This document shows positions 306 to 22,651 of a stretch of DNA of 32,000 bases, one piece after another (position 1 is the first letter of the stretch; each line of letters opens with the position of its first letter). Position numbers and translations under genes: made by a program. The DNA is from Candidatus Thorarchaeota archaeon. GTDB taxonomy: Archaea; Asgardarchaeota; Thorarchaeia; Thorarchaeales; Thorarchaeaceae. The DNA lies in the NCBI GenBank assembly GCA_003345555.1, contig PRDJ01000035.1:34120-66119 (forward strand), written 5' to 3'. The notes beneath the pieces were generated by a model. The model was not told the origin of the DNA, made no database searches, and saw nothing but the letters and a program-made list of their open reading frames with translations.

Positions 306-602
306 GTTTGGACTTCTTTGCAGCAAAGGCTGCTGTGACTCCGTGTCACTGGAAGCCACCGCAACCATTATTGGCATCGAGTGACATGAGCAATCCGCAA
401 CGTCCGCTCTTCTTTTCAAAAGATAGGACGGTCGTGGGGAAGTGATTCCACGTGACTTGGCCATCTCGGTGTTTGTCTGGTATCGGCTCCGCCATCGGCA
501 ATGAGCAGTCTCCGAGCCGGGGGTACTGCCAAGGTAGGTTCACTTCGCTGCCATCAAGGGACAGCAACAGTTATTGACCCCAAGAACTGTCTCAGTTCAG
601 AG

Positions 603-2996
603 ATGCCTGCGAAGAAGTACTACACAGCGTGCTCACTGAACTGCCCAGACATATGCGCGTTCGTGGTTCAAGTAGAGGGCGGTCGCATTGTCAGACTTGA
701 GGGTGACAGGAACCATCCATACACATTGGGCAGATGCTGTCCAAAGGGTTATGCCCATGTGCTCAGAATGTATTCGCCCGACAGGATATTGTACCCTCAG
801 CGGCGTCAGGCTGACGGTACCTTCAAGAGAATCGCTTGGAATGATGCGCTCGACGAGATTGCTGTCGATATTGACGATGCTCGCAGGAAGTTCGGTGCGC
901 AGTCTGTGGGCATATACTGCGGCTCGGGAAATGATGGGCTAGCCCCTAAGTATGCCAGCAGATTTGCGAACACGCTTGGCTGCAGAATGATTCCGGGGAT
1001 TGTCGAAATCTGTTTCGAAGGTGCGTACGAGGGTGCTCGGTTCAATGTCGGCCCTTTTCCTCCTCACGAGCTAAGCGACTGGGCGAACTCGCGATGTATT
1101 GTGGTATGGGGTACGAACAAGTTCGAATCCAGCATTCACTCGAAGAGAGTCATCAAAGAAGCGACCGATCACGGCGCGAGACTGATTGTCATAGACCCTC
1201 GCAAGACTCCACTCGCAAAGATAGCTGACATCTACACAACCATTAGACCAGGGACTGACGGAGCACTTGCTCTTGGAATTGCGAATGAGATAATCAAGAG
1301 AGACCTGTATGATCACGAGTTTGTCGATAGATACGTTGTCGGCTTCGAGGAGTACAAGCGCAGAGTGGCTGAATACGACAAGAGGACCGTGAGCGAGATA
1401 ACTTGGGTGGATGCCAACACAATTGAAGCCATAGCTCACACATTTGCCGTTCACGGACCCGGTCTCTTAATGACAGCTCCTGCTGGGATGAATCACTATA
1501 CGAATGGAACTTGGGCCGCGAGGGCAGTGCATAGTCTTCTTGCAATATGCGGCTACTTGGGTGTTTCAGGAGGCGGTTTTCAGTATCTCTCATCCGATCG
1601 CGGTCCCTTCCAAAGCTCTTCGATTACGCTTGCTGACATGCTTCCAAGTTCAGTCAGACCTGTTGTCGAGTCGGGAACGCATATTCCGGAATACGTGCTG
1701 AGTCATGAGGAATCACCTCTCAAGGTGTTCATCATTCAGGCGGCAAGTCCTATTACTCAGTGGCCGAATACGAAGAAGACTAGGGCGGCACTTGAGCGAA
1801 TTCCTCTCAAGGTCTGTATCGATATCGAGATGACCGACACAGCCCGGTTGTGTGACATCGTCCTCCCCGCGACAACATTGTTCGAACATCATAACTTAAT
1901 GCACAGCGAACTTCACAGGATTGTCCAATATGCACCGAAGATTGTGGAGCCACCGGGCGAGGCAAGGCATGAGCTGGAAATCTGGAAAGGAATCGCAGAG
2001 AAGCTCGGGCTTGGCAAGTTCTTCCGACTAACAGAGCTTGATGCGATAAAGCTTGCACTGGGAGGTCATGATTGTGAAGGGATTACGCTCGATGAACTTA
2101 AGCGGCATCCGGGCGGCATGAGAACTAGGAGTCCGGCTATCCCATTCGCAGATCGCCACTTTCTCACGCCATCAGGCAAAGTCGAGCTGTATTCCAAAAC
2201 GTTGGCGAATTTGGGCTATGACCCTTTGCCGTACCACCAGGAGCCAGCTGAAAGCCCTGTATCCACGCCTGAGATTTTCAGAAACTACCCACTAATCATG
2301 ATTTCTGGTAGGCTACGGAACCGATTGCACTCACAGTACACTACCGTGGAAGTCGGAGCTGAGGCCAAGGCCTATTCTGAATGTACAACTTGTCAGAAGT
2401 GTGTCAAAGACTGCAAGGACGAGGCAATATCCCTACAGTCACCCAGCATCGAGATGATTCGCCGGGTTTCTAGCGAGAATCCAGAGACGCGTGCCAAGAT
2501 GCGTGAAAAGCTAAGTGAGAGTGTGAAAGGACTTGCCATCACTGGCTCAGAAATAGTGATAGCTATTCCCAACAGCATCACTGGACTCCAAGTCCCCATA
2601 TGGGACCCGGTCAAGTGCATAGGGTGCAGAGAGTGTAATCTGGACATCTGTCCTTTCAAGGTCGTGACGGAACCAATTAGAATGCCCTCGATGCTCCAGA
2701 CCCCTACGCATCGAACGTTCCTGAGGATGAACCCGGTTGCTGCAGAGCGGCTCGGCCTCTCTGATGGAGACTCAGTCCGCGTGGAATCCATCAGAGGGGC
2801 AATCGAGGGTATCCAGCTTGAATTGACAGAAGACATCGATTCCAGGGTCGTGTGGGCATCCGACGGTTGGTGGGAGAGAGACGGCAACATTAACCTCCTG
2901 ACCGATGACAAACACACGGCGTTCGGACACACGCCGGGCTTCAACTCGGTTCTTGTGCGAGTCTCTAGGGTCGAGCACGGTGCACGTCAGCTCTAG
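603..2996 (+). CDS. Mo/W-bisPGD (DMSO reductase superfamily) oxidoreductase catalytic subunit with an N-terminal [4Fe-4S] site and an inserted 2x[4Fe-4S] ferredoxin domain
   Basis: N-terminal CSLNCPDIC...CCPKG; WGTN, VIDPR, IRPGTDGALALG, DIVLPA and TPSGKVELYS motifs; C-terminal domain IV motifs (LIMISGR..HSQ, MNPVAAERLGLSDGDSVRVES). Likely Cys metal ligand in EICFEGA. Start moved from 501 to ATG 603 (MPAKKYYTAC) because the upstream 34 codons show no family or TAT signal features. Confidence 0.9.
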   Translation: MPAKKYYTACSLNCPDICAFVVQVEGGRIVRLEGDRNHPYTLGRCCPKGYAHVLRMYSPDRILYPQRRQADGTFKRIAWNDALDEIAVDIDDARRKFGAQSVGIYCGSGNDGLAPKYASRFANTLGCRMIPGIVEICFEGAYEGARFNVGPFPPHELSDWANSRCIVVWGTNKFESSIHSKRVIKEATDHGARLIVIDPRKTPLAKIADIYTTIRPGTDGALALGIANEIIKRDLYDHEFVDRYVVGFEEYKRRVAEYDKRTVSEITWVDANTIEAIAHTFAVHGPGLLMTAPAGMNHYTNGTWAARAVHSLLAICGYLGVSGGGFQYLSSDRGPFQSSSITLADMLPSSVRPVVESGTHIPEYVLSHEESPLKVFIIQAASPITQWPNTKKTRAALERIPLKVCIDIEMTDTARLCDIVLPATTLFEHHNLMHSELHRIVQYAPKIVEPPGEARHELEIWKGIAEKLGLGKFFRLTELDAIKLALGGHDCEGITLDELKRHPGGMRTRSPAIPFADRHFLTPSGKVELYSKTLANLGYDPLPYHQEPAESPVSTPEIFRNYPLIMISGRLRNRLHSQYTTVEVGAEAKAYSECTTCQKCVKDCKDEAISLQSPSIEMIRRVSSENPETRAKMREKLSESVKGLAITGSEIVIAIPNSITGLQVPIWDPVKCIGCRECNLDICPFKVVTEPIRMPSMLQTPTHRTFLRMNPVAAERLGLSDGDSVRVESIRGAIEGIQLELTEDIDSRVVWASDGWWERDGNINLLTDDKHTAFGHTPGFNSVLVRVSRVEHGARQL

Positions 2997-3026: not shown

Positions 3027-4301
3027 CTATGACCAGAATGGAACTATGATGAACATGTAGACAGTTGCAGTTGCAAGGTGTATCAGACCCACCGTCATAG
3101 CCAGCTTTATGAATTCGGCCCATGAAATATGACTCTCATTCTCCTCGGCCAATGAGACAACGTACATGTTGGGTGCATCACCAAAGGGTATTGTATAACC
3201 TCCCATGTTCACACCGGCCACGAGTGATGTTGCGACAATGGGGCTTCCTCCAGGGAATTCCGCGGCCACCGGGGCCATCAATGCACCAACTGCAGTCGTA
3301 TCTAGGATCCCTATTGCAAAGCCTGGTACCCATATGAAGACGAAAGCAGCAATGTACATGTTGCCACCGACAAGAGCAACCAATCCACCCACTAGGTCGG
3401 TGACAACGTTCGTGACCGACAGAGACGCGACGAGACCCAGAAGCCCAACCACAAAGAAAACAGTTTCCCAAGATAACTGCTGAAGGAGGTCCTTCGCTCT
3501 GTCGAATGATATCACCAGCAGTGCGGAGGCAACAAGAACCGCGACCATGGCCGATTCATTCGGGACAAGGATAAGCCCTGCCATGAGAACGCCCAAGGTG
3601 AGTATCGAGAGGTAGAAGTCAAAGCGCGACTTGATCATTACTCTTGGGTCAACTTGGAAGAGTTCGCTTGTCTCGTCGAACTTGCCCGGCACCAAGACAT
3701 CCTTGTAGTAGTTTAGCAGAAACACAATTGTCACAAGCAATAGAATCACTGATAGAGGCATGAGGATGACGAACATTGACCCAACATCGAGATTGGCGAG
3801 GCGAACAATCAGTAAGTTCGGGATGCTACCAATAGGTGTCGGGAGGGAGCCTAGGTCTGCCACTATGATTTCTCCGATTAAGAATGGCCTGAAATCGATT
3901 CCGAGACCACGACAAATCTCAACCGTGAACGTGGCCATTATGATGATTGTCGGGAGAGGAGGAATGAAAGGTGACATGACAAAAACAATGGTCATGAACA
4001 CGAGGAAGACTTTGCGAGGGTCGCCTCTCGTACGTTTCGCCAGAATAAGGGCCGTATACTGAAACATGCCGGAGGAACCCACGACCGATATTATGATCAT
4101 CATTGCCATGACAAACAGTATCGTATCCCAGTTCATGGCATTCAGCATCTCAACGAATCCATACCCACCCACTGCATACAACACAGCCGCTGCGAGACCC
4201 ATCGAGAAGAGCACTACTGCCGTGTCGTCGAATTTCTCGATTAACAGCACTACGAGTGTGACAATGAATATAATCAGACAAATAATACCTGCAATCTCCA
4301 A
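3027..4301 (-). CDS. ArsB/NhaD/P-protein (SLC13/IT superfamily)-type permease, paralog 1
   Basis: Highly hydrophobic, 424 aa. WDTILF, SGMFQY, PTPIGSIPN and IPFGDAPN motifs. TTG start with GGAG upstream. Confidence 0.85.
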   Translation of the reverse strand: MEIAGIICLIIFIVTLVVLLIEKFDDTAVVLFSMGLAAAVLYAVGGYGFVEMLNAMNWDTILFVMAMMIIISVVGSSGMFQYTALILAKRTRGDPRKVFLVFMTIVFVMSPFIPPLPTIIIMATFTVEICRGLGIDFRPFLIGEIIVADLGSLPTPIGSIPNLLIVRLANLDVGSMFVILMPLSVILLLVTIVFLLNYYKDVLVPGKFDETSELFQVDPRVMIKSRFDFYLSILTLGVLMAGLILVPNESAMVAVLVASALLVISFDRAKDLLQQLSWETVFFVVGLLGLVASLSVTNVVTDLVGGLVALVGGNMYIAAFVFIWVPGFAIGILDTTAVGALMAPVAAEFPGGSPIVATSLVAGVNMGGYTIPFGDAPNMYVVSLAEENESHISWAEFIKLAMTVGLIHLATATVYMFIIVPFWS

Positions 4302-4529
4302 GCAGAACGCGCTCCTTCGTGCGAGCCCGATGTGTCATCTTGGCGGCAAAGGTCCGCCTAGCGCACCTGAGCAACTGGATAATAAGGTATTCTGTGTTGT
4401 CAGGCGATTCACCAGTTCTCAGACAGGCATTCAATGTAGCATCTGTGTTCGTCATTCATCTTGGAGTTCACTCGCTTGAGCAGGAATTCCAATGTGCCAG
4501 CATGATGAACATGTATCACCAATTGATTA

Positions 4530-5801
4530 TCAAACCAGCGCGGCTACCGCAAAAAGATAGGCTGTCGATATTGCCAGATGGACCAACCCGAGCGGCGTGA
4601 CGGCTTTCGTGAAATCCATCCATGAAATCGGCCCACGGTTCTTCTCGGCTAAGTCCCGAAGATACATGTTAGGGGCATCTCCAAACGGGATGACATACAC
4701 TGAGAAGTTCAATCCGGCAACCATTGAGATGGGCACTATTCTGTTCAACGATGCGAACTCCACACTCATGGGCGCAAGAAAGGCTGCTATAGGGATAGTG
4801 TCAAACGCAGACATTACAAATCCGGGCAGCCATATCATCACCAAGATGGCGATGAATACGTTGTTGCCCACGACGGCAGTCATTGCTGCCACGAGATCTG
4901 TGGAGACGCCTGTCACTTGCAGTGCTGCGACAATTCCGAATAGGCCCACAATGAAAAAGACCGTGTTCCAAGACAGCTGGTTCAACAGAACCTTAGCTCT
5001 CTGGAACGAAATCACCAGCAGTCCTCCGGCAACAACGAGAGCCACGGTCACAGACTCTGTAGGGACGAGTACCAGTCCTGTTATCAGTACTGCAAGCGCA
5101 ATAGCTGAGACAAAAAAGTCGAGTCTCGAGCGTATCATGAGTCTTGGCTCTATATCAAAGAGATGGCTGGCTGCAGCGCCTGGAAGCTGTGCGAAGACCT
5201 GTCGGTAGTACCTGAGGAAGTACCAAATTGTCACTCCCAGAAGAAGTAATGACAATGGGAACAGAGTGACGAACATGAGGCCGATGTTCATTTCGGTGAG
5301 GGACACGACAATCATGTTTGGAATTGATCCTATCGGACTTGGTATGGAGGCAGAGTTAGCTACAACAGCCTCTGAGAGCAAGTATGGTCTGAAATCGATT
5401 CCAAGGGAGTTGCATACTTCCGCGGTGAAGGCACCTATTATCAAAATGGTCGGCAGGGGTTGCAGCACGAGCGATACTACAAATACAAACCCCATGAGAA
5501 CCATGAATAATCTCCTTGGCTCCCCTCGGGTCCAGCGAGCAAGAACGAGGGCCATATACTGAAACATGCCCGAAGAACCTAGGACGGATATGATGATCAT
5601 CATCGCCGCTATGAAAAGAACGGTGTCCCAGTAGATACTACCTAGCATGGCTGTGAAAGCTATGTTGTTGAAGGTATAAAGCACCAGAGCACATAGTCCC
5701 AACGAGAAAAGTGCAACAGCTGTTTCATCAAGTCTGCCAAGCAGTATGACCAGTAAAGTCCCGACGAATATAATCAGGCAGATTATCCCGGCTATGTCCA
5801 T
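4530..5801 (-). CDS. ArsB/NhaD/P-protein (SLC13/IT superfamily)-type permease, paralog 2 (tandem duplicate of paralog 1)
   Basis: MDIAGIICLIIF matches MEIAGIICLIIF of paralog 1, so the start is placed at ATG 5801 rather than GTG 5810. WDTVLF, SSGMFQY, PSPIGSIPN and IPFGDAPN motifs. Confidence 0.85.
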   Translation of the reverse strand: MDIAGIICLIIFVGTLLVILLGRLDETAVALFSLGLCALVLYTFNNIAFTAMLGSIYWDTVLFIAAMMIIISVLGSSGMFQYMALVLARWTRGEPRRLFMVLMGFVFVVSLVLQPLPTILIIGAFTAEVCNSLGIDFRPYLLSEAVVANSASIPSPIGSIPNMIVVSLTEMNIGLMFVTLFPLSLLLLGVTIWYFLRYYRQVFAQLPGAAASHLFDIEPRLMIRSRLDFFVSAIALAVLITGLVLVPTESVTVALVVAGGLLVISFQRAKVLLNQLSWNTVFFIVGLFGIVAALQVTGVSTDLVAAMTAVVGNNVFIAILVMIWLPGFVMSAFDTIPIAAFLAPMSVEFASLNRIVPISMVAGLNFSVYVIPFGDAPNMYLRDLAEKNRGPISWMDFTKAVTPLGLVHLAISTAYLFAVAALV

Positions 5802-5922
5802 GTCAATCACGTTTCAACTCGTGGTACTACGGAGAGCTGTTTGTGGCTGGAGCCGTCAGGAAGTAATCGCAATAAATAAGTGTCGCGTCTAGCCTCTGCT
5901 GAAAAGACCGGTCGCTGATCGT

Positions 5923-7032
5923 ATGGACTCGAGAATCGAACATCATGCCCGAATTCTTGTAGAATGGAGCACTGAAGTGAAGAAGGGTGATATGGTCATC
6001 ATCAGTGCCTCCCCTGAAGCTCACGAATTGGCTGTCGCAGTTACAAAGGAAGTGGCAAGAGCTGGTGGGAGTCCGTTTACAGTCATGGCGAGTGAGGAGA
6101 TTACCCGTGCTTTCTATGACGGGGCGGCCGAAGACACGATAGCTTTGTACCCGAAGCATCAGGAATCGCTTATCCAAGCATGCGATGTATTTATCGCACT
6201 TAGCGCCCCAGTGAACACACGGGCACTCGCGAATATTGACTCGAAGAGAATCATCGCTCTCAGCAGAACAGTCCAGAAGATCACGGACCTGAGGCTATCG
6301 AAACGCTGGTGCCTGACTGTGCACCCTTGCAGGACACTAGCTCAGCAGGCTAACATGAGCTTGGAAGAGTATCAGAATTTCGTGTATGGCGCGACCCTGA
6401 TTGATTGGAAGGCAGAAAGCAAGAATCTATACCTCATGAAGGAGCATTTCGAACAGCACAAGGATGTCAGATTCGTTGGCCCGGATACGGACCTCCATGC
6501 ATCAACTGAAGGACGAATTTGGGTCGCCTCAGATGGCAAACACAACATGCCGAGCGGGGAGGTATTCACTGCACCAGTCGAGACCACTGTCGAAGGGAAG
6601 ATATTGTTCGATGTGCCTTTCCTACAGCAGGGTCGAGTCATCGAAGGAGTGAAGCTCAGATTCGAGAAGGGAGAAGCAGTTGATTTCTCGGCCGAGAAGG
6701 GGCAGGAGACTCTGAAGTCTATACTGGATACGGATGCAGGTTCCAGACGACTCGGCGAGATTGCAATAGGTACGAATCGTGGCATCAAGCAGTACACTCT
6801 CAACATGCTGTTCGACGAGAAAATGGGCAACACAGTTCACTGCGCCTTGGGTAACAGCTACAAAGAAAACAACGGCACCAATCGGAGCGCGGTTCACGTA
6901 GACATGATCAAGACCATGGTCAATGGTGAGGTCATAGCAGGTGATGAGGTAATCTACTCTAAGGGCAAGTACTTCTTCGAGACTCAGGCGCCTGGAAGGC
7001 CTTCGATTGGCAAGAAAACACAGAGAAAGTAA
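5923..7032 (+). CDS. Aminopeptidase, peptidase family M29 (AmpS/AmpT/PepS-like)
   Basis: NMPSGEVFTAP, RRLGEIAIGTN, LFDEKMG..VHCALG and SAVHVDM carry the M29 metal/catalytic Glu, His and Asp residues. Confidence 0.92.
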   Translation: MDSRIEHHARILVEWSTEVKKGDMVIISASPEAHELAVAVTKEVARAGGSPFTVMASEEITRAFYDGAAEDTIALYPKHQESLIQACDVFIALSAPVNTRALANIDSKRIIALSRTVQKITDLRLSKRWCLTVHPCRTLAQQANMSLEEYQNFVYGATLIDWKAESKNLYLMKEHFEQHKDVRFVGPDTDLHASTEGRIWVASDGKHNMPSGEVFTAPVETTVEGKILFDVPFLQQGRVIEGVKLRFEKGEAVDFSAEKGQETLKSILDTDAGSRRLGEIAIGTNRGIKQYTLNMLFDEKMGNTVHCALGNSYKENNGTNRSAVHVDMIKTMVNGEVIAGDEVIYSKGKYFFETQAPGRPSIGKKTQRK

Positions 7033-7655: not shown

Positions 7656-8618
7656 ATGGACATCCTCCTTCAAGCTCTCTTGCTTATCGTGTTTGCAGTT
7701 GGAGTGGGAACACTGGCCTCGATGCTCGGTATAGGCGGCGGAATAATCCTGATGCCTCTCTTGGTTATCGTATTTGGTTTTTCTGCTAGACTGGCACCTG
7801 CCACGACGCTCGTCGCCGCTCTCTTTGCCGCGATAGCTGGTTCCTATGCGTACCTACGGCAGAAGCCGAGTCCCGTAATCGTAAAGGCCGGGCTCTTCTT
7901 GGCAGCGACCAGTGTTCCAGGTTCGCTCGTTGGCGTATGGCTACGACTGATAATTCCGACTGACTTCATTCTAAGGTTAGTCTTTGCTGTAGTTCTTCTC
8001 CCGATCGCAATCAGGATGCTCTTTGCCAAGAGGAAGGGCAAAGGAGACTTGGCCTCAGAGGTCGGTTCGTTCGGATTCTCTCAGGTTTCCCATCGAAGAC
8101 TCCTCTCTTCTCTTGCAGGCTCATTCAGTGCAGGCACTCTGTCGGGTTTGTTAGGGATAGGAGGGGGCATACTGATGGTTCCAGTCTTCAACATGATGAT
8201 GGGACTCCCGATGCACGCGGCAGTAGCCACCTCAATGCTCACGATGATCTTCACTGCCACATCAGGTACGATGCTCAACTTCCTGACAAGCGAAATCGAC
8301 TTCTTCTACAGCCTTACTTTGAGCATAGGCATGGTCATTGGAGCCCAGATAGGCCCGAAGCTCATTTGTCACGTGAACGCCATTCGTCTCAAGCAGGCTT
8401 TTGGTGTTGTATTGGTCTACCCGCTAGTCAACATGGCACAACTTGGCAAGATGATGTTGGACCCTTCAGGCACAAATCCTATCATGGCTACGATTGGCGA
8501 CCTCATCATCTGGTTCTTGATAGTAGTACCGGCCATCTTTGTGAAAGTAGTGGAGTCGCGAAGAGCAAGAACCCTTGAGACTCCGTCTGAGAAGTGCGAG
8601 GTGCCGACTTCGGAATAG
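7656..8618 (+). CDS. Sulfite exporter TauE/SafE (TSUP) family membrane protein
   Basis: Duplicated GIGGG(I/L)..P motifs (LGIGGGIILMP, LGIGGGILMVP) and AVATS. Multi-TM. Confidence 0.88.
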   Translation: MDILLQALLLIVFAVGVGTLASMLGIGGGIILMPLLVIVFGFSARLAPATTLVAALFAAIAGSYAYLRQKPSPVIVKAGLFLAATSVPGSLVGVWLRLIIPTDFILRLVFAVVLLPIAIRMLFAKRKGKGDLASEVGSFGFSQVSHRRLLSSLAGSFSAGTLSGLLGIGGGILMVPVFNMMMGLPMHAAVATSMLTMIFTATSGTMLNFLTSEIDFFYSLTLSIGMVIGAQIGPKLICHVNAIRLKQAFGVVLVYPLVNMAQLGKMMLDPSGTNPIMATIGDLIIWFLIVVPAIFVKVVESRRARTLETPSEKCEVPTSE

Positions 8619-16299: not shown

Positions 16300-18942
16300 T
16301 TAGGCTTTCACATCTTTGTTCCTGTATGCTACTGGGCTTGCATCAAAGGTCTTCTTGCAGTTCGGGCTACAGAAGTAGTACCTCTTTCCCATGAAGTCAC
16401 TGTACAGCGCCGCTGTCTGGATGTCTACATCCATCTTGCATACGGGATCGATGGCGATGCCCGACTTCCTATCCTCGGATGGAAGCACCGTTGTGGCTCC
16501 CTCGCCCAATGGCCTAGGCTTGAACCTGCCAAGGAACAATGCATTCGTGACAACGCTGACGCTGGATAGCGACATGGCGAGGCCAGCATACTCTGGTCTT
16601 AGTACTAAGCCCATTAGCGGTACGAAGACACCAGCCGCTATCGGAAGCAAAGCCAAGTTGTATACGAACGCCCAGAAGAATCCTTGCTTAATCTTGGTCA
16701 TCGTCTTGCGACCGAGCTCAATGCCCGATACAACGTCCAGGAGATTGTCTTTCACAAGTACGATATCCCCGGTCTCCACTGATACGTCCGTACCTGAGCC
16801 CAAGGCAATACCGACATCGGCTTGAGCCAGAGCAGGAGCGTCATTTACGCCGTCGCCTACCATTGCCACTGTGCGTCCTTCAAGTTGGAGGCCCTTCACT
16901 TTGATTGCTTTGTCCGCAGGTAACACTTCTGCAAGAACGTTATCAATTCCAAGACTTCTCGCCACGGCTCGTGCTGTCTTCTCCTTATCCCCGCTAATCA
17001 TCCAGACATTGAGACCCATGCTACGAAGTGCTTTGACTGCCCTTGCTGAACTCTCTTTGGGTGGGTCAGCTATAGCCAGCGCGGCGAGTGGCCTGCCATC
17101 GATTGCTGAGTATACCACCGTCTTGCCCTGTTCCTCAAGCGCGTCGCTCTTGGTATCAATCTGAGAAATGTCGATGGAATTCTCCCGCATGTAATGGTCA
17201 TTTCCGATGATTATCGTGGAGCCGTCCACGGTGGCACGGACTCCTTTGCCAGAATCGGAAATGAAATCGTCAACTCGGAGAAATTCAATCTCTCTCTCTT
17301 GTGCATAACGAACGACCGCCTCAGCCAGAGGATGTGCACTATTCTTCTCCACCGATGATATCAGCTGCAATGCTTTGGTTGCATCGGTATTCGAGGCGTA
17401 GATGAGGTCTGTAACGGTAGGCTTCCCGACGGTCAGTGTTCCTGTCTTGTCGAACACGACTGTGTCAATCCTAGGAATTGCTTCGAGCCCCGCTCCCGTC
17501 TTGAAGAGTATACCCTCCTTGGCTCCTCTTCCTATCCCCACCATAATCGCCGTAGGGGTAGCCAAGCCCAGGGCACATGGACACGCGGCGACAAGGACAG
17601 CTATTGTGAAACTCAATGCTCTCACCCAACCTGCACCCATGAACACCACCCACGACACGAATGTCGCGGCTGCCAGTATTAGGACAATCGGGACGAATAC
17701 TTCTGCGATCGCGTCAGCCCTTCTCTGGATTGCAGGTTTCTGGGTCTGAGCTACCTCAACGAGCCGCACAATCTGGGACAAGACAGTGTCCTGTCCGACC
17801 TTCGTAGCTCTTATCCTGAGTGCTCCACTCCTGTTTATCGTGGCGCCGACGGCTGAGTCTCCCACATTCTTGGTGACCGGCATTGATTCTCCTGTGATCA
17901 TTGATTCATCAACAGTAGATTGTCCCTCTACAACTTCGCCATCTACTGGCACCTTGTCACCAGGTCTCACCAATATTATGTCACCGACTTCCACATCCTC
18001 AGCAGGGATTACGATCTCTTGGCCATTCCTCTCGACAATAGCTACCTGGGCTTGAAGGTTCATCAGGCTCCTGATGGCTCTCGAGGTTCGACCCTTGGCG
18101 ATGGCCTCAAGCGTCCTGCCTAGGAGAATGAATGTAATCAACAGAGCCGCAGTATCGTAGAACGTCAAGTAACCCGGTAGCACAAACGTTGCCGCTACGG
18201 AATAGAAATAGGCTGCACTAGTCCCTAGCATTATGAGCAGATCCATGTTGGTCTTGCCATGCCGAAGTACTCTGAGGCTTGACCGGTAGAAAGGATAGCC
18301 CGCGACGAATTGAATGGGGGTCGTCAAGATGAATAGCACAAAGTCTGCAGACACCCCTGGGGGTATGAATGGAATCAACACTCCAAGCATGATCAACAGC
18401 ACTGGGACAGTCAAGACTGTGGCAAAGGCCAGCAAGCCCGAATAGTAGTGAACTTCCCTCTCTCTTGCCAACGACTCTCTATCAACACGTGAGGTACTAG
18501 TGTCCACTATGCTGTAACCTAGCTCCTTGAGTGCTCGTTTGACAATCTTGGACGTAACCAAATCCTCGTCGTACTCAACAAGAAGGCGTCCGCTGTCCTC
18601 ATAATTCCTTACACTGATAACGCCGTCAAGATTCTTGATCCTCTCTGAGATGGGCTGCCATTCTTCTCGCTGAGGATGAGGATTAAGAGTCAGAGTCATG
18701 GCCGGCCTTCTTGCGCGATATCCTGTCGAGTTGACTGCTTCCTCCAATGTTCGACGATCTACCTTGCCTGCCTCGTATTCAACTACAGCTTTCTCATCCA
18801 GTAGACTCACGGCCGCACTGACGACACCTTCCTGTTTGAGAAGCGACTTCTCGACGGTCGCCACACAGGATGCGCAGTGCATCCCCTCTATCTTCAGTGA
18901 CATTCGCGATTTGGTCGCTGACTCGCGCGATTCAGTACTCAA
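16300..18942 (-). CDS. copA: Cu(I)-translocating P1B-type ATPase with HMA, degenerate HMA and C-terminal YHS/TRASH domains
   Basis: [40 protein letters not shown], and YN and MSLSS Cu(I)-type TM motifs. C-terminal DPVCKM...[15 protein letters not shown] start with GGTGG upstream (ATG 18903 is an alternative). Confidence 0.93.
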
Positions 18943-19045: not shown

Positions 19046-19630
19046 TCAGCCCACGAACAGGTCACTTTCTCCACTTTCGGCCAGCTTCATCATTCGCAGC
19101 AGCTCTGTGAATGTATGTTGTATATTCTCACCTGTCTTAGCTGATGTCTCGATAAAGTAGGCCGGCACATTGAGCTTGGCTTTGAAATACTCCGCAAACT
19201 TCCGGCCTTCGTCAGGAGTCACACTGTCCTTTGCCGGGGTTCGTGGTCGGAGGTCCACTTTGTTACCTACTATGACGGTGGGCGGCAACGGCCCCATGTT
19301 GCGGTAGGCTTCCACGAGCCATTTGGAAGCGTTCTCGAATGATCTTCGGTCGACCACAGAGTACACCAAGATGATTCCATTGCAGCCATGATAGTAGTGG
19401 CCTCTGACTTTCTCGAATGTAGGTTGCCCGGCCAAATCCCATATTATGAACTTCACGACTTCGTCCTCGAAGAGTATTCGCTTTGTCGCAAGGTCAACTC
19501 CTATGGTTGCGATATGACCCTCGATGAAGTCCTCTCCTAGGTAATTGCGCCGCATGCTGGTCTTGCCTACGGCACCATCTCCTATGAGAACTGCCTTCAG
19601 AATCCTGCTGCCGTCGTCTTGGTCCTTCAT
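19046..19630 (-). CDS. Ras-superfamily small GTPase, Rab-like
   Basis: G1 GDGAVGKT, G2 ATIG, G3 WDLAGQ, G4 NKVD, G5 SAK. RabF-like IGVDL, KFIIW, YYHGC and LVYSV. No C-terminal Cys. Confidence 0.92.
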   Translation of the reverse strand: MKDQDDGSRILKAVLIGDGAVGKTSMRRNYLGEDFIEGHIATIGVDLATKRILFEDEVVKFIIWDLAGQPTFEKVRGHYYHGCNGIILVYSVVDRRSFENASKWLVEAYRNMGPLPPTVIVGNKVDLRPRTPAKDSVTPDEGRKFAEYFKAKLNVPAYFIETSAKTGENIQHTFTELLRMMKLAESGESDLFVG

Positions 19631-21120: not shown

Positions 21121-22404
21121 CTAGTGGAGAAGCAACGTCAGCATCAGAATCCATCCAGTGCCAATGACCATCATCAGCAGCGCTATTGGCATTGCCGCTT
21201 TCGCAAAACCCCGCATCCCTATCGGATTCTCTTCAGCTTCAGATAATGCGAGGGCGATTACGTTCGCCGGAGAGCCTATTGGTAGAATAAAGGCGCCGAC
21301 ATTGACGCCAAACACAAGCGCAAGAGGAGGCATTGGACCCGCGGTTGCAGCCTCAACAGCCAATGGGGCAAGTAGAGCCGCTATTGGCACGTTATCGATT
21401 ACTGACGATAGCAGGCCCGGAATCCAAATCATGAAGAGCGTGACACTGACTGCTCCGCCGCTGATGAATGCGTCTGCCCAGTTGGCTATGTCCGCGAGTA
21501 CGCCAGTCGCCTCAAGTGCGGCGACAATCCCAAAAATCCCTATTACGAAGAACACAGTGCCCCACCCAACCTCGCGCAAAACCCTGTCCACATCGTGCTC
21601 CGTCAATAGGAGCATGATTGCCGCGATTGTTATCGACACTAAGCTTGCTTCCAACCCCTCGGCAACGCCTACTGTGAAAGCCAATATGAGGGCAATCATC
21701 GCTATGATGGACATGTAGAACTCAATTCTCGAACGAATGAGAGTCGTCGGGTCAATCTTGAACAGTTCTTCTGCTGTGGCCTTGTTGCTTGCAGTTAGGG
21801 AGTTTCTATAGAAGCGACGGAGCAAAGGCAGCGATACAATGAGGAGAATGAAAGACAGAGGCATCAAGGTAACAAACTGGAATCCCGGGTTGATTCCTGT
21901 TGCAGTCGCTACAACTAGATTCGGCACGTCACCCACGACGGAAGGTATAGAAGCGAAGTTTGCGACTATGGCCTCGGAAACAAGGAAGGCCTTGATGTCG
22001 AGGTCTAGTGCCCTGCACAACTCAATCGTAATTGGCCCGACTATTAGCATCGTGGATGTTGTGTCGAAGAATAGGGAGATGAAAAACACGAAAACCAAGA
22101 ATGTCGTAAACAATCGAGGTGGGTTGCCGCCGCTAGGGAGGGCCATCCTGAGGGCAATATACTGATACATGCCCGAGGCACGAGATATGCCAACAATAAT
22201 CATCTGACCCGTTATGAATAACACAGTGTACCATCCAATGCGTTCAGTCAACGCTTGGAATGAGCTCACGTGTGCTGCCCAGAGAATCAAAGCGACAATC
22301 CCCATACCCGTAAGCGACATTGCAGTCCTGTTGACTCTCTCACTTGTTATTGCACTGTAGGTAACAATGAACACTAATACGACAAGTCCGCCGACTAGAT
22401 CCAT
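21121..22404 (-). CDS. ArsB/NhaD/P-protein (SLC13/IT superfamily)-type permease, paralog 3
   Basis: SGMYQY, FDTTST, NFASIPSVVGDVPN, IDNVP, NVGAFILPIGSPAN. Start at ATG 22404 has GAGG upstream (22413 is an alternative). Confidence 0.87.
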   Translation of the reverse strand: MDLVGGLVVLVFIVTYSAITSERVNRTAMSLTGMGIVALILWAAHVSSFQALTERIGWYTVLFITGQMIIVGISRASGMYQYIALRMALPSGGNPPRLFTTFLVFVFFISLFFDTTSTMLIVGPITIELCRALDLDIKAFLVSEAIVANFASIPSVVGDVPNLVVATATGINPGFQFVTLMPLSFILLIVSLPLLRRFYRNSLTASNKATAEELFKIDPTTLIRSRIEFYMSIIAMIALILAFTVGVAEGLEASLVSITIAAIMLLLTEHDVDRVLREVGWGTVFFVIGIFGIVAALEATGVLADIANWADAFISGGAVSVTLFMIWIPGLLSSVIDNVPIAALLAPLAVEAATAGPMPPLALVFGVNVGAFILPIGSPANVIALALSEAEENPIGMRGFAKAAMPIALLMMVIGTGWILMLTLLLH

Positions 22405-22651
22405 AGGATGCATTCCTCGTTCTGTGCTCTTGTGAATGGCCTTGACAGTGTGTCCCAGTCAGGATGCGGAGTATGGCAAGCTATGCAGATGGGTTCACCC
22501 TATTAACTTCCGCGGATGCAATTCGTACTGAGCTGTTCTTCTCCAGAGCTTGAAGCAATATCAGTTCGTCCCACCAGCGTCAGTGAAAGCTGTCATCGAG
22601 CTCATGCGGGCAAGAGAGATATGCCGCTTCTTGTGCAACTGACCATGCAAG

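Follow-up and report, generated by a model that had tools for sequence, protein, structure and literature searches.

Introduction

In the arsenite permease ArsB of Leptospirillum ferriphilum, the substrate pocket is formed by an inverted repeat, each half of which contributes a hairpin (HP1 or HP2) and a loop (L1 or L2). According to the accessible part of the cryo-electron microscopy report (PMC13381914), As(OH)3 is within 3 Å of N111, N337 and S380 and within 4 Å of D112 and N158, with S380 hydrogen-bonding the substrate and D112 being the proposed proton-coupling residue. In VcINDY, a Na+-dicarboxylate symporter of the DASS (SLC13) family, the carbonyls of G199 and A420 are described as coordinating Na1 and Na2, and S200 and T421 as hydrogen-bonding N151 and N378, the asparagines that hold Na+ and succinate (available portion of PMC5413979); N203 is invariant, and the S200A substitution nearly abolishes transport and succinate stabilisation (available portion of PMC13394699). 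Asgard proteomes contain 1-5 MamN-like (TC 2.A.45.2.2) paralogues each, and the accessible part of that survey makes no remark on hairpin or loop motifs (PMC7997004). Here we analyse three permease genes, PAR1, PAR2 and PAR3, in a stretch of 32,000 nucleotides (the window) from a Candidatus Thorarchaeota archaeon (GenBank assembly GCA_003345555.1, contig PRDJ01000035.1, positions 34,120 to 66,119 of the forward strand).

The tandem genes PAR1 and PAR2 carry an aspartate directly after the conserved glycine of L2, and this residue is the hallmark of a well-supported clade. We found no description of the clade in the open library searched, and judging from its sequences it would form an uncharacterised specificity class among Asgard permeases.

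Results

Pocket motifs of PAR1, PAR2 and PAR3

The three genes and their motifs lie in the window as follows.

3027..4301, minus strand: PAR1, 424 residues, TTG start; predicted elevator permease, CitMHS/ArsB-like, in the L2-Asp clade; the downstream member of the tandem pair
3948..3968, minus strand: PAR1 HP1 tip FIPPLPT (residues 112-118), P114 in place of Asp and P-L-P in place of a polar tip; model loop 110-114
3816..3836, minus strand: PAR1 L1 motif PIGSIPN (residues 156-162), with S159; model loop 152-159
3288..3308, minus strand: PAR1 HP2 tip ILDTTAV (residues 332-338), D334 kept; model loop 330-334
3168..3188, minus strand: PAR1 L2 motif PFGDAPN (residues 372-378), with D375; model loop 371-375
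4530..5810, minus strand: PAR2, 426 residues, GTG start; upstream gene of the tandem pair
5448..5468, minus strand: PAR2 HP1 tip VLQPLPT, Gln in place of Asp
5316..5336, minus strand: PAR2 L1 motif PIGSIPN
4668..4688, minus strand: PAR2 L2 motif PFGDAPN
21121..22413, minus strand: PAR3, 430 residues; paralogue in the sister clade, Asp at L1 instead of L2
21919..21939, minus strand: PAR3 L1 motif VVGDVPN
21262..21282, minus strand: PAR3 L2 motif PIGSPAN

These strings agree with an earlier note on this DNA, which had read Ser then Asp in the loops of PAR1 and PAR2, Asp then Ser in PAR3, and a loss of the first-hairpin Asp in the pair. The HP2 tip of PAR2 is AFDTIPI, and the hairpin tips of PAR3 are FFDTTST (first) and VIDNVPI (second). 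The gene ends given in that note, 5801 for PAR2 and 22404 for PAR3, correspond to an ATG at codon 4, in frame in PAR2. PAR1 is 54% identical to PAR2, to which it is adjacent and co-oriented with 228 bp between them, and 33% identical to PAR3.

The note had allowed that the two loop motifs might not be structurally equivalent. Alignment of the N-half and C-half profiles of the family with hhalign (probability 96.6%, E 5.6e-10, 164 columns) pairs S159 with D375 and P114 with D334, placing them in equivalent positions of the two repeats. PAR1 was modelled with AlphaFold2 from an alignment of 94 sequences (mean predicted local distance difference test score 88.9, predicted template modelling score 0.87). 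In the model the tips of the two helical hairpins fall at residues 110-114 and 330-334, and two further helices are broken by loops at 152-159 and 371-375, so that the four residues of interest close these four loops. The inverted two-fold repeat of the elevator fold, with a hairpin and a broken helix in each half, is thus found in both the profile alignment and the model, and PAR1-3 are predicted to be elevator permeases of the ion-transporter superfamily.

In the family profile alignment, the variable residue of L1 falls on ArsB N158 and VcINDY S200, and that of L2 (D375 in PAR1) on ArsB S380 and VcINDY T421. The conserved Gly that precedes it aligns with VcINDY G199 in L1 and A420 in L2, and the terminal Asn of L1 with VcINDY N203. 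The Asp position of HP1 corresponds to ArsB A110 and VcINDY S150, the two residues after it to ArsB N111 and D112; the Asp position of HP2 corresponds to ArsB N336 and VcINDY S377, and the next residue to ArsB N337. The earlier placement of the hairpin and motif regions at the transporter pocket is thus upheld: on this alignment both motifs are the L1 and L2 pocket loops, and the Asp stands at a pseudo-symmetric hot spot.

A conserved clade with aspartate in L2

Among close homologues (120 listed, of which the 115 of at least 380 residues were aligned, three being the window's own entries), the L1/L2 residues are Ser/Asp in 54 and Ala/Asp in 2, making 56 with a C-half Asp; the remainder are Ala/Ser (37), Ala/Ala (15), Asp/Ala (4) or other (3). 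The HP2 Asp is kept in all 56, and the HP1 Asp (F-L-D-P-L-P-T) in 43, the other 13 having P, H, Q or I. PAR1 was also searched in 41 genomes, namely the window's own genome, 24 more from its family and 16 from more distant lineages. The 40 loci fetched gave 60 permease open reading frames (ORFs), of which 59 were aligned and treed, one distant CitMHS protein being dropped. Two sister clades emerged, A and B, each with a support of 96 in the Shimodaira-Hasegawa-like approximate likelihood ratio test. Clade B comprises 22 rows with an L2 Asp in 20, and the two exceptions, an upstream copy in genome G003 and a long-branch gene in G016, both have Gly. The HP1 Asp is kept in 13 of these rows and lost in nine, seven of the nine losses being in the window's genus. 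The 33 rows of clade A fall into A2 (15, Ala/Ser) and A1 (18), and an A1 subclade of five rows, PAR3 and its orthologues in G001, G002, G003 and G015, has an L1 Asp throughout. Whether the form with Asp in the C-terminal half is a conserved clade, as the note had asked, can thus be answered in the affirmative, and within the genomes searched this permease clade is confined to one Thorarchaeia family. Shared by 56 of the 115 full-length homologues and by all but two of the 22 clade-B rows, the C-half-Asp pattern is, on these alignments, not a product of chance.

Clades A and B also differ around the pocket. Taking as discriminating those positions at which each clade is at least 85% conserved for a different residue, we found nine of 25 within the 39 pocket-motif residues, compared to 2.3 expected (hypergeometric p 1.3e-4). 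The changes in clade B relative to clade A include P-L-P for T-T-S in HP1, F373, A376-P377 and M379 in L2, and Y369. Outside the motifs, PAR1 H408 (window 3075-3080 region) is His in 100% of clade B and Met in clade A. In the 56 sequences with an L2 Asp, His408, Tyr369 and Tyr415 are each 100% conserved, their counterparts in the sister clade being Met, Phe and Trp; these three residues may possibly serve as extra proton or metal ligands. The ratio of nonsynonymous to synonymous substitution (dN/dS) is 0.09-0.14 for PAR1 and its two relatives in G003, indicating purifying selection and hence working genes. That the copies are decaying duplicates was rejected on this ground and by their intact ORFs.

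The note had recognised that a C-half GDxPN common in the family would undo its claim. An exhaustive search for the wider family gave 2179 proteins at E <= 0.001, of which the best 150 cluster representatives, 141 of them of at least 380 residues, were compared. An acid occurs in L1 only in 81 of the 141 (80 Asp and one Glu), nearly all of the form T-L-I-G-D-P-P-N ... G-A-S-A-N, in neither loop in 54, in L2 only in six, and in both in none; the L2 residue is A in 69, S in 48, G in 7, T in 7 and D in 5. With an L2 acid in only six of these 141 representatives, the C-half Asp is rare in the wider family.

Independent gains of aspartate at L1 and L2

A FastTree phylogeny of the representatives together with PAR1-3 splits, at 98% local support, into two superclades. 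The first, with the GDPPN/GASAN pattern, has 92 rows, of which 81 carry an acid in L1 and none in L2; the second has 52 rows including PAR1-3, of which 27 are Ser/Ser and eight have an acid in L2, PAR3 being the only one with an L1 Asp. P0125, P0128 and P0131, the outgroups closest to the Thorarchaeial genes, are likewise Ser/Ser. Because the surrounding lineage is Ser/Ser, the L2 Asp of the pair and the L1 Asp of PAR3 are seen as independent gains: on the simplest reading of the tree, Asp would have been gained at L2 in the PAR1/PAR2 lineage and separately at L1 in the small lineage of PAR3. A swap by descent between the repeat halves is ruled out by the Ser/Ser ancestry, so that the mirror-image relation which the earlier note had seen between the tandem pair and PAR3 reflects two separate gains rather than an exchange. 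The same note had taken PAR3 as canonical, which holds for its appearance and fails by descent, PAR3 being the sole L1=D among the 52 rows and lying outside the GDPPN/GASAN superclade; its canonical look would most simply be convergence. We take GDPPN/GASAN, which the tree and alignment cover through cluster representatives, to be the P-protein/OCA2-like pattern given in that note. The term 'GDPPN' is absent from the main text, as far as available, of an OCA2 modelling paper (PMC10372470).

The other representatives with an L2 acid are a clade of four clusters (P0181, P0183, P0205 and P0213; T-P-L-G-D-N, with a two-residue deletion) and a Glu form (P0238), and their source names, where given, are Lokiarchaeota/Lokiarchaeia, Helarchaeota and Jordarchaeales. 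A single origin of all L2-Asp forms was rejected by the approximately unbiased (AU) test (delta lnL 167.5, p 5.7e-7), the tested group having been named only after the tree was seen. This second L2-Asp clade (TP[LMI]GD-N, with NN in HP1) occurs in 46 of 201 Asgard genomes (family f5 18/21, f9 24/40, f22 3/10, f24 1/3, the window's family 0/43), and all 19 genes from the 16 loci fetched (L047-L062) have G-D.

Among the 45 nearest of 112 neighbour ORFs, which were scanned, a conserved ORF of 187-213 residues without a Pfam match follows the permease gene at many loci of the second clade (as at L047, 3980-5422 and 5493-6053); in f5 the permease gene is followed by an ORF of about 555 residues, again without a Pfam match. 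CorA is adjacent in three of the 16 loci.

PAR1 and PAR2 as a tandem pair

The earlier note had raised the possibility that the two genes always occur together and form a heterodimer. Clade B was found in 15 of the 25 family genomes, of which four (G000, G001, G003 and G016) have two clade-B genes in tandem, while in the others the clade is represented by one gene or by two that are not linked. Of the window's congeners, G001 has the pair. In G002 the same neighbours flank only one gene, of the PAR2 type, and tblastn shows no trace of another; G003 lacks the PAR2 type, both of its copies being of the PAR1 type (86% and 87% identity to PAR1 by tblastn). Fragments of the neighbouring oxidoreductase gene (its 3' end; L007:16824-17402, minus strand) lie between the G003 copies and mark a separate segmental duplication. 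The two partners are thus not found together wherever either occurs, and by this distribution the PAR1/PAR2 pair is a genus-level tandem duplication.

A different tandem, formed by an A1 and an A2 gene (Ala/Ser-or-Ala type plus FTPLGSPAN type), is present in nine genomes of seven genera (G022, G007, G008, G010, G013, G011, G017, G005 and G023; loci L024, L025, L027, L029, L030, L031, L034, L039 and L043). The window's genus and G015 have the PAR3 type instead of this pair. A two-protomer transporter is more plausible for the A1+A2 pair than for PAR1/PAR2.

Gene neighbourhood

Further features of the window are listed below.

501..2996, plus strand: molybdenum/tungsten (Mo/W)-pterin oxidoreductase with an inserted ferredoxin module (2x[4Fe-4S]), convergent with PAR1; context only
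5923..7032, plus strand: M29 aminopeptidase gene (Pfam PF02073, E 8.8e-75)
7656-8618, plus strand: TauE/SafE-family membrane protein
16300-18942, minus strand: P-type ATPase of the heavy-metal type, containing HMA and YHS domains and lying between the pair and PAR3
19046-19630, minus strand: Ras-family small GTPase, also between the pair and PAR3

The M29 gene stands head-to-head with PAR2 across a divergent region of 112 bp (5811-5922) and is the strong one of two M29 matches in the genome. Within the flanks fetched, of only about 2 kb, an M29 gene is head-to-head with the permease gene at 10 of 18 clade-B loci, in six genera and both main subclades, and beside none of the 24 loci with genes of clade A, the PAR3 type or the outgroup. 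At six of the 18 clade-B loci the permease gene is convergent with that of the ferredoxin-bearing Mo/W oxidoreductase, and further neighbours vary (GNAT, PEPCK, DinB).

The M29 gene that neighbours the clade-B permease of G010 is divided between two adjacent frames (L015:3969-4739 and 4743-4985), which would reflect a frameshift, an assembly error or a broken gene. The TauE/SafE gene lies two genes past M29 in all four genomes of the window's genus (counterparts L007:12643-13602, L008:94-1059 and L009:5737-6501). The sole NCBIfam match of its product is a weak one to the C-terminal part of MamO, and the top model of the permeases is MamN; this MamO/MamN echo is probably family-level similarity only.

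Discussion

Taken together, these results suggest how the pocket of clade B may have been rebuilt. Its HP1 tip is without polar residues (P-L-P, as opposed to T-T-S or N-x-T), and with the HP1 Asp also gone in the window's genus, charged and polar ligands remain on the C-repeat side only. We propose that in clade B these ligands have moved to that side (HP2 Asp with Asn or Thr, plus the L2 Asp), leaving the HP1 side hydrophobic. The L2 carboxylate would sit where ArsB has its substrate-bonding Ser, beside a Na2-type carbonyl, which speaks for a ligand that is cationic or amino-bearing, or for a different coupling ion; the L2 Asp would accordingly re-specify the pocket for such a solute or alter the coupling-ion site. 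Each paralogue would be a transporter in its own right, and the clade would be co-regulated with the divergent M29 aminopeptidase gene, a link that might mean that the permease takes up peptides or amino acids for the aminopeptidase, exports the enzyme's products or supplies its metal. An altered substrate or ion coupling in PAR1 and PAR2, as the earlier note had supposed, is thus a reasonable inference, and a dicarboxylate, arsenite or plain NhaD-type function is argued against by the pocket residues. We judge this general explanation, comprising a re-specified L2-Asp pocket, self-standing paralogues and co-regulation with M29, somewhat likelier to be right than wrong.

Several points weigh against it. 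The residues were placed in the pocket by aligning sequences with ArsB and VcINDY, to which identity is 17-18%, and the VcINDY Thr that corresponds to the L2 Asp works indirectly, by bracing an Asn, so that the L2 Asp could be structural only. For the enrichment test, the motifs were already known when the pocket windows were set, and because the genomes compared are kin, the M29 linkage and the enrichment p-value overstate independence. M29 is absent from eight of the 18 clade-B loci, and none was found beside the second L2-Asp clade among the 45 nearest of 112 neighbour ORFs scanned. Any particular substrate would be a guess, to which we give much less credence than to the explanation as a whole.

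Among the rival explanations, the L2 Asp could be near-neutral or purely structural, for instance through a hydrogen bond to the HP2 tip akin to that between T421 and N378 of VcINDY, with the clade doing the same job as its Ser/Ala sisters after subfamily drift. The indirect action of the VcINDY equivalents (PMC5413979, in its accessible part) and the spread of residues at the L2 position across the 141 representatives speak for this possibility, which we nevertheless consider unlikely: all but two of the 22 clade rows and all 19 genes of an independent clade have the Asp, which has at least two origins (AU p 5.7e-7), an L2 acid is never combined with an L1 acid (0/141), and HP1 and L2 were remodelled together. 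Moreover, replacing Ser by Asp buries a charge, and in the core of a membrane this is seldom neutral. An obligate heterodimer, in which the tandem reflects two non-equivalent protomers, would explain the adjacency and common orientation of PAR1 and PAR2 and the constraint on both genes (intact ORFs, conserved L2 Asp), and would accord with the dimeric state of DASS relatives (PMC5413979, same portion) and with the nine conserved A1+A2 tandems, which make paired permeases a theme in this family. Yet G002 makes do with one gene at the syntenic locus, G003 lacks the PAR2 type, most genera have single or unlinked copies, and the tandem is found in only four of 15 genomes; the same pocket motifs in both paralogues do not look like complementary half-sites; and the ArsB authors, in the part of their report at hand, take their observed oligomers as detergent artefacts (PMC13381914). 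We therefore hold the obligate heterodimer to be very unlikely, though facultative mixing may occur.

It could also be that the database labels are right and that the PAR proteins are arsenite/antimonite efflux pumps or NhaD-type Na+/H+ antiporters. Relatives are named 'Na+/H+ antiporter NhaD/arsenite permease-like', ArsB is the best solved relative, and a Mo/W-pterin oxidoreductase adjoins. However, where ArsB has the ligands N111, D112, N158, N337 and S380, PAR1 has P, L, S, T and D. The ArsB models NF011980 (PRK15445), TIGR00935 and NF033877, with cut-offs of 457, 415 and 760 bits, score only 58/42/45 for PAR1, 65/47/39 for PAR2 and 118/94/77 for PAR3, and the NhaD models TIGR00775 and NF038006 give no match for PAR1-3 at E <= 0.01. 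One further family member was found in the whole assembly, on another contig (G000:C82, L004:1294-2655, minus strand; 453 residues), and it is a genuine ArsB (PF02040 276.7 bits; FAND, SN, MNN and GS motifs), so that arsenite has a dedicated pump in this genome, separate from PAR1-3. An arsenic link through the neighbouring Mo/W enzyme was likewise rejected, the genes being convergent and the enzyme scoring far below the cut-offs of the ArrA and arsenite-oxidase models. That the labels describe the function of these proteins is accordingly, in our estimate, highly improbable. The genuine ArsB gene adjoins an alanyl-tRNA-synthetase-like ORF.

The conserved and independently recurring L2 Asp cautions against taking labels such as 'SLC13 family permease' or 'NhaD/arsenite permease-like' in Asgard genomes as function, and the head-to-head M29 gene offers a concrete handle on the physiological role. 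A bolder proposal, quite improbable in our view, is that Asgard archaea have repeatedly built a new class of carrier (at least twice with Asp and once with Glu, all source-named lineages being Asgard), with a pocket carboxylate on L2, never together with an L1 acid, and that the side on which it stands may set transport polarity or coupling. Should that side decide between symport and antiport or uptake and efflux, PAR1/PAR2 and PAR3 would be a natural test pair, and the presence of both mirror forms in one genome allows a simple mutational design. The idea that inverted-repeat symmetry encodes direction in elevator transporters would then become testable, and M29 would tie the class to the peptide and amino-acid economy.

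Comparison with known transporters

PAR1, PAR2 and PAR3 all belong to Pfam PF03600 (CitMHS; E 1e-44, 7e-44 and 7e-55; 153.5, 150.7 and 186.9 bits against a gathering cut-off of 31.9), and no curated NCBIfam model reaches its cut-off for any of them. MamN (NF040989), the top NCBIfam model for PAR1 and PAR2, gives 102.1, 84.3 and 105.5 bits for PAR1, PAR2 and PAR3, far below its cut-off of 500. The DASS/SLC13 model TIGR00785 gives 60.1, 48.2 and 70.6 bits (cut-off 198.6). Pfam PF02040 (cut-off 22.2 bits) matches PAR3 at 64.6 and PAR1 marginally at 23.5, with no match for PAR2. The GDPPN-type representative P0135 matches the NhaD models only weakly.

The GDPPN/GASAN 'ArsB/NhaD family' superclade shares with PAR3 the position of the L1 acid (81 of 92 representatives), and differs in that PAR1-3 fall in the other, mostly Ser/Ser superclade of 52 rows.

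Profile searches against the PDB gave ArsB at E 3.3e-44 and VcINDY at about E 4e-22, and the top Foldseek match of the PAR1 model was the L. ferriphilum ArsB (10tp_A; template modelling (TM) score 0.82, E 3.6e-14), followed by NaS1, NaDC3, NaCT, Pho90 and VcINDY, with TM scores of 0.75-0.83 for ArsB, NaS1, NaCT and VcINDY. ArsB, the closest solved relative by both sequence and fold, on which the prediction of PAR1 and PAR2 as elevator transporters leans, has in common with the PAR1 model its inverted repeat, its HP1-L1/HP2-L2 pocket and its loop positions (PDB 10tp; PMC13381914, accessible part), and differs in the ligands. The fold of PAR1 is likewise that of VcINDY and the DASS symporters (PDB 4f35 and 5ul7; TM 0.76-0.79; PMC5413979, available portion), which share with the PAR family the G-x-x-P-N loop of L1 (GSPPN in VcINDY), its invariant Asn (N203) and the Gly or Ala that, before the variable residue, provides the Na1 or Na2 carbonyl. 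The S-N-T motifs of the DASS hairpins are not found in PAR1, whose tips read PPLPT and DTT in place of SNT and SNT, and the acidic pocket residues of PAR1 and PAR2 would be ill-suited to a DASS-type dicarboxylate substrate. As far as the available parts of their reports go, both of the solved systems considered here have a proven hot spot at the position that follows the conserved Gly, as N158 and S380 in ArsB and through S200A in VcINDY, and it is at this position that PAR1 and PAR2 carry their L2 Asp and PAR3 its L1 Asp.

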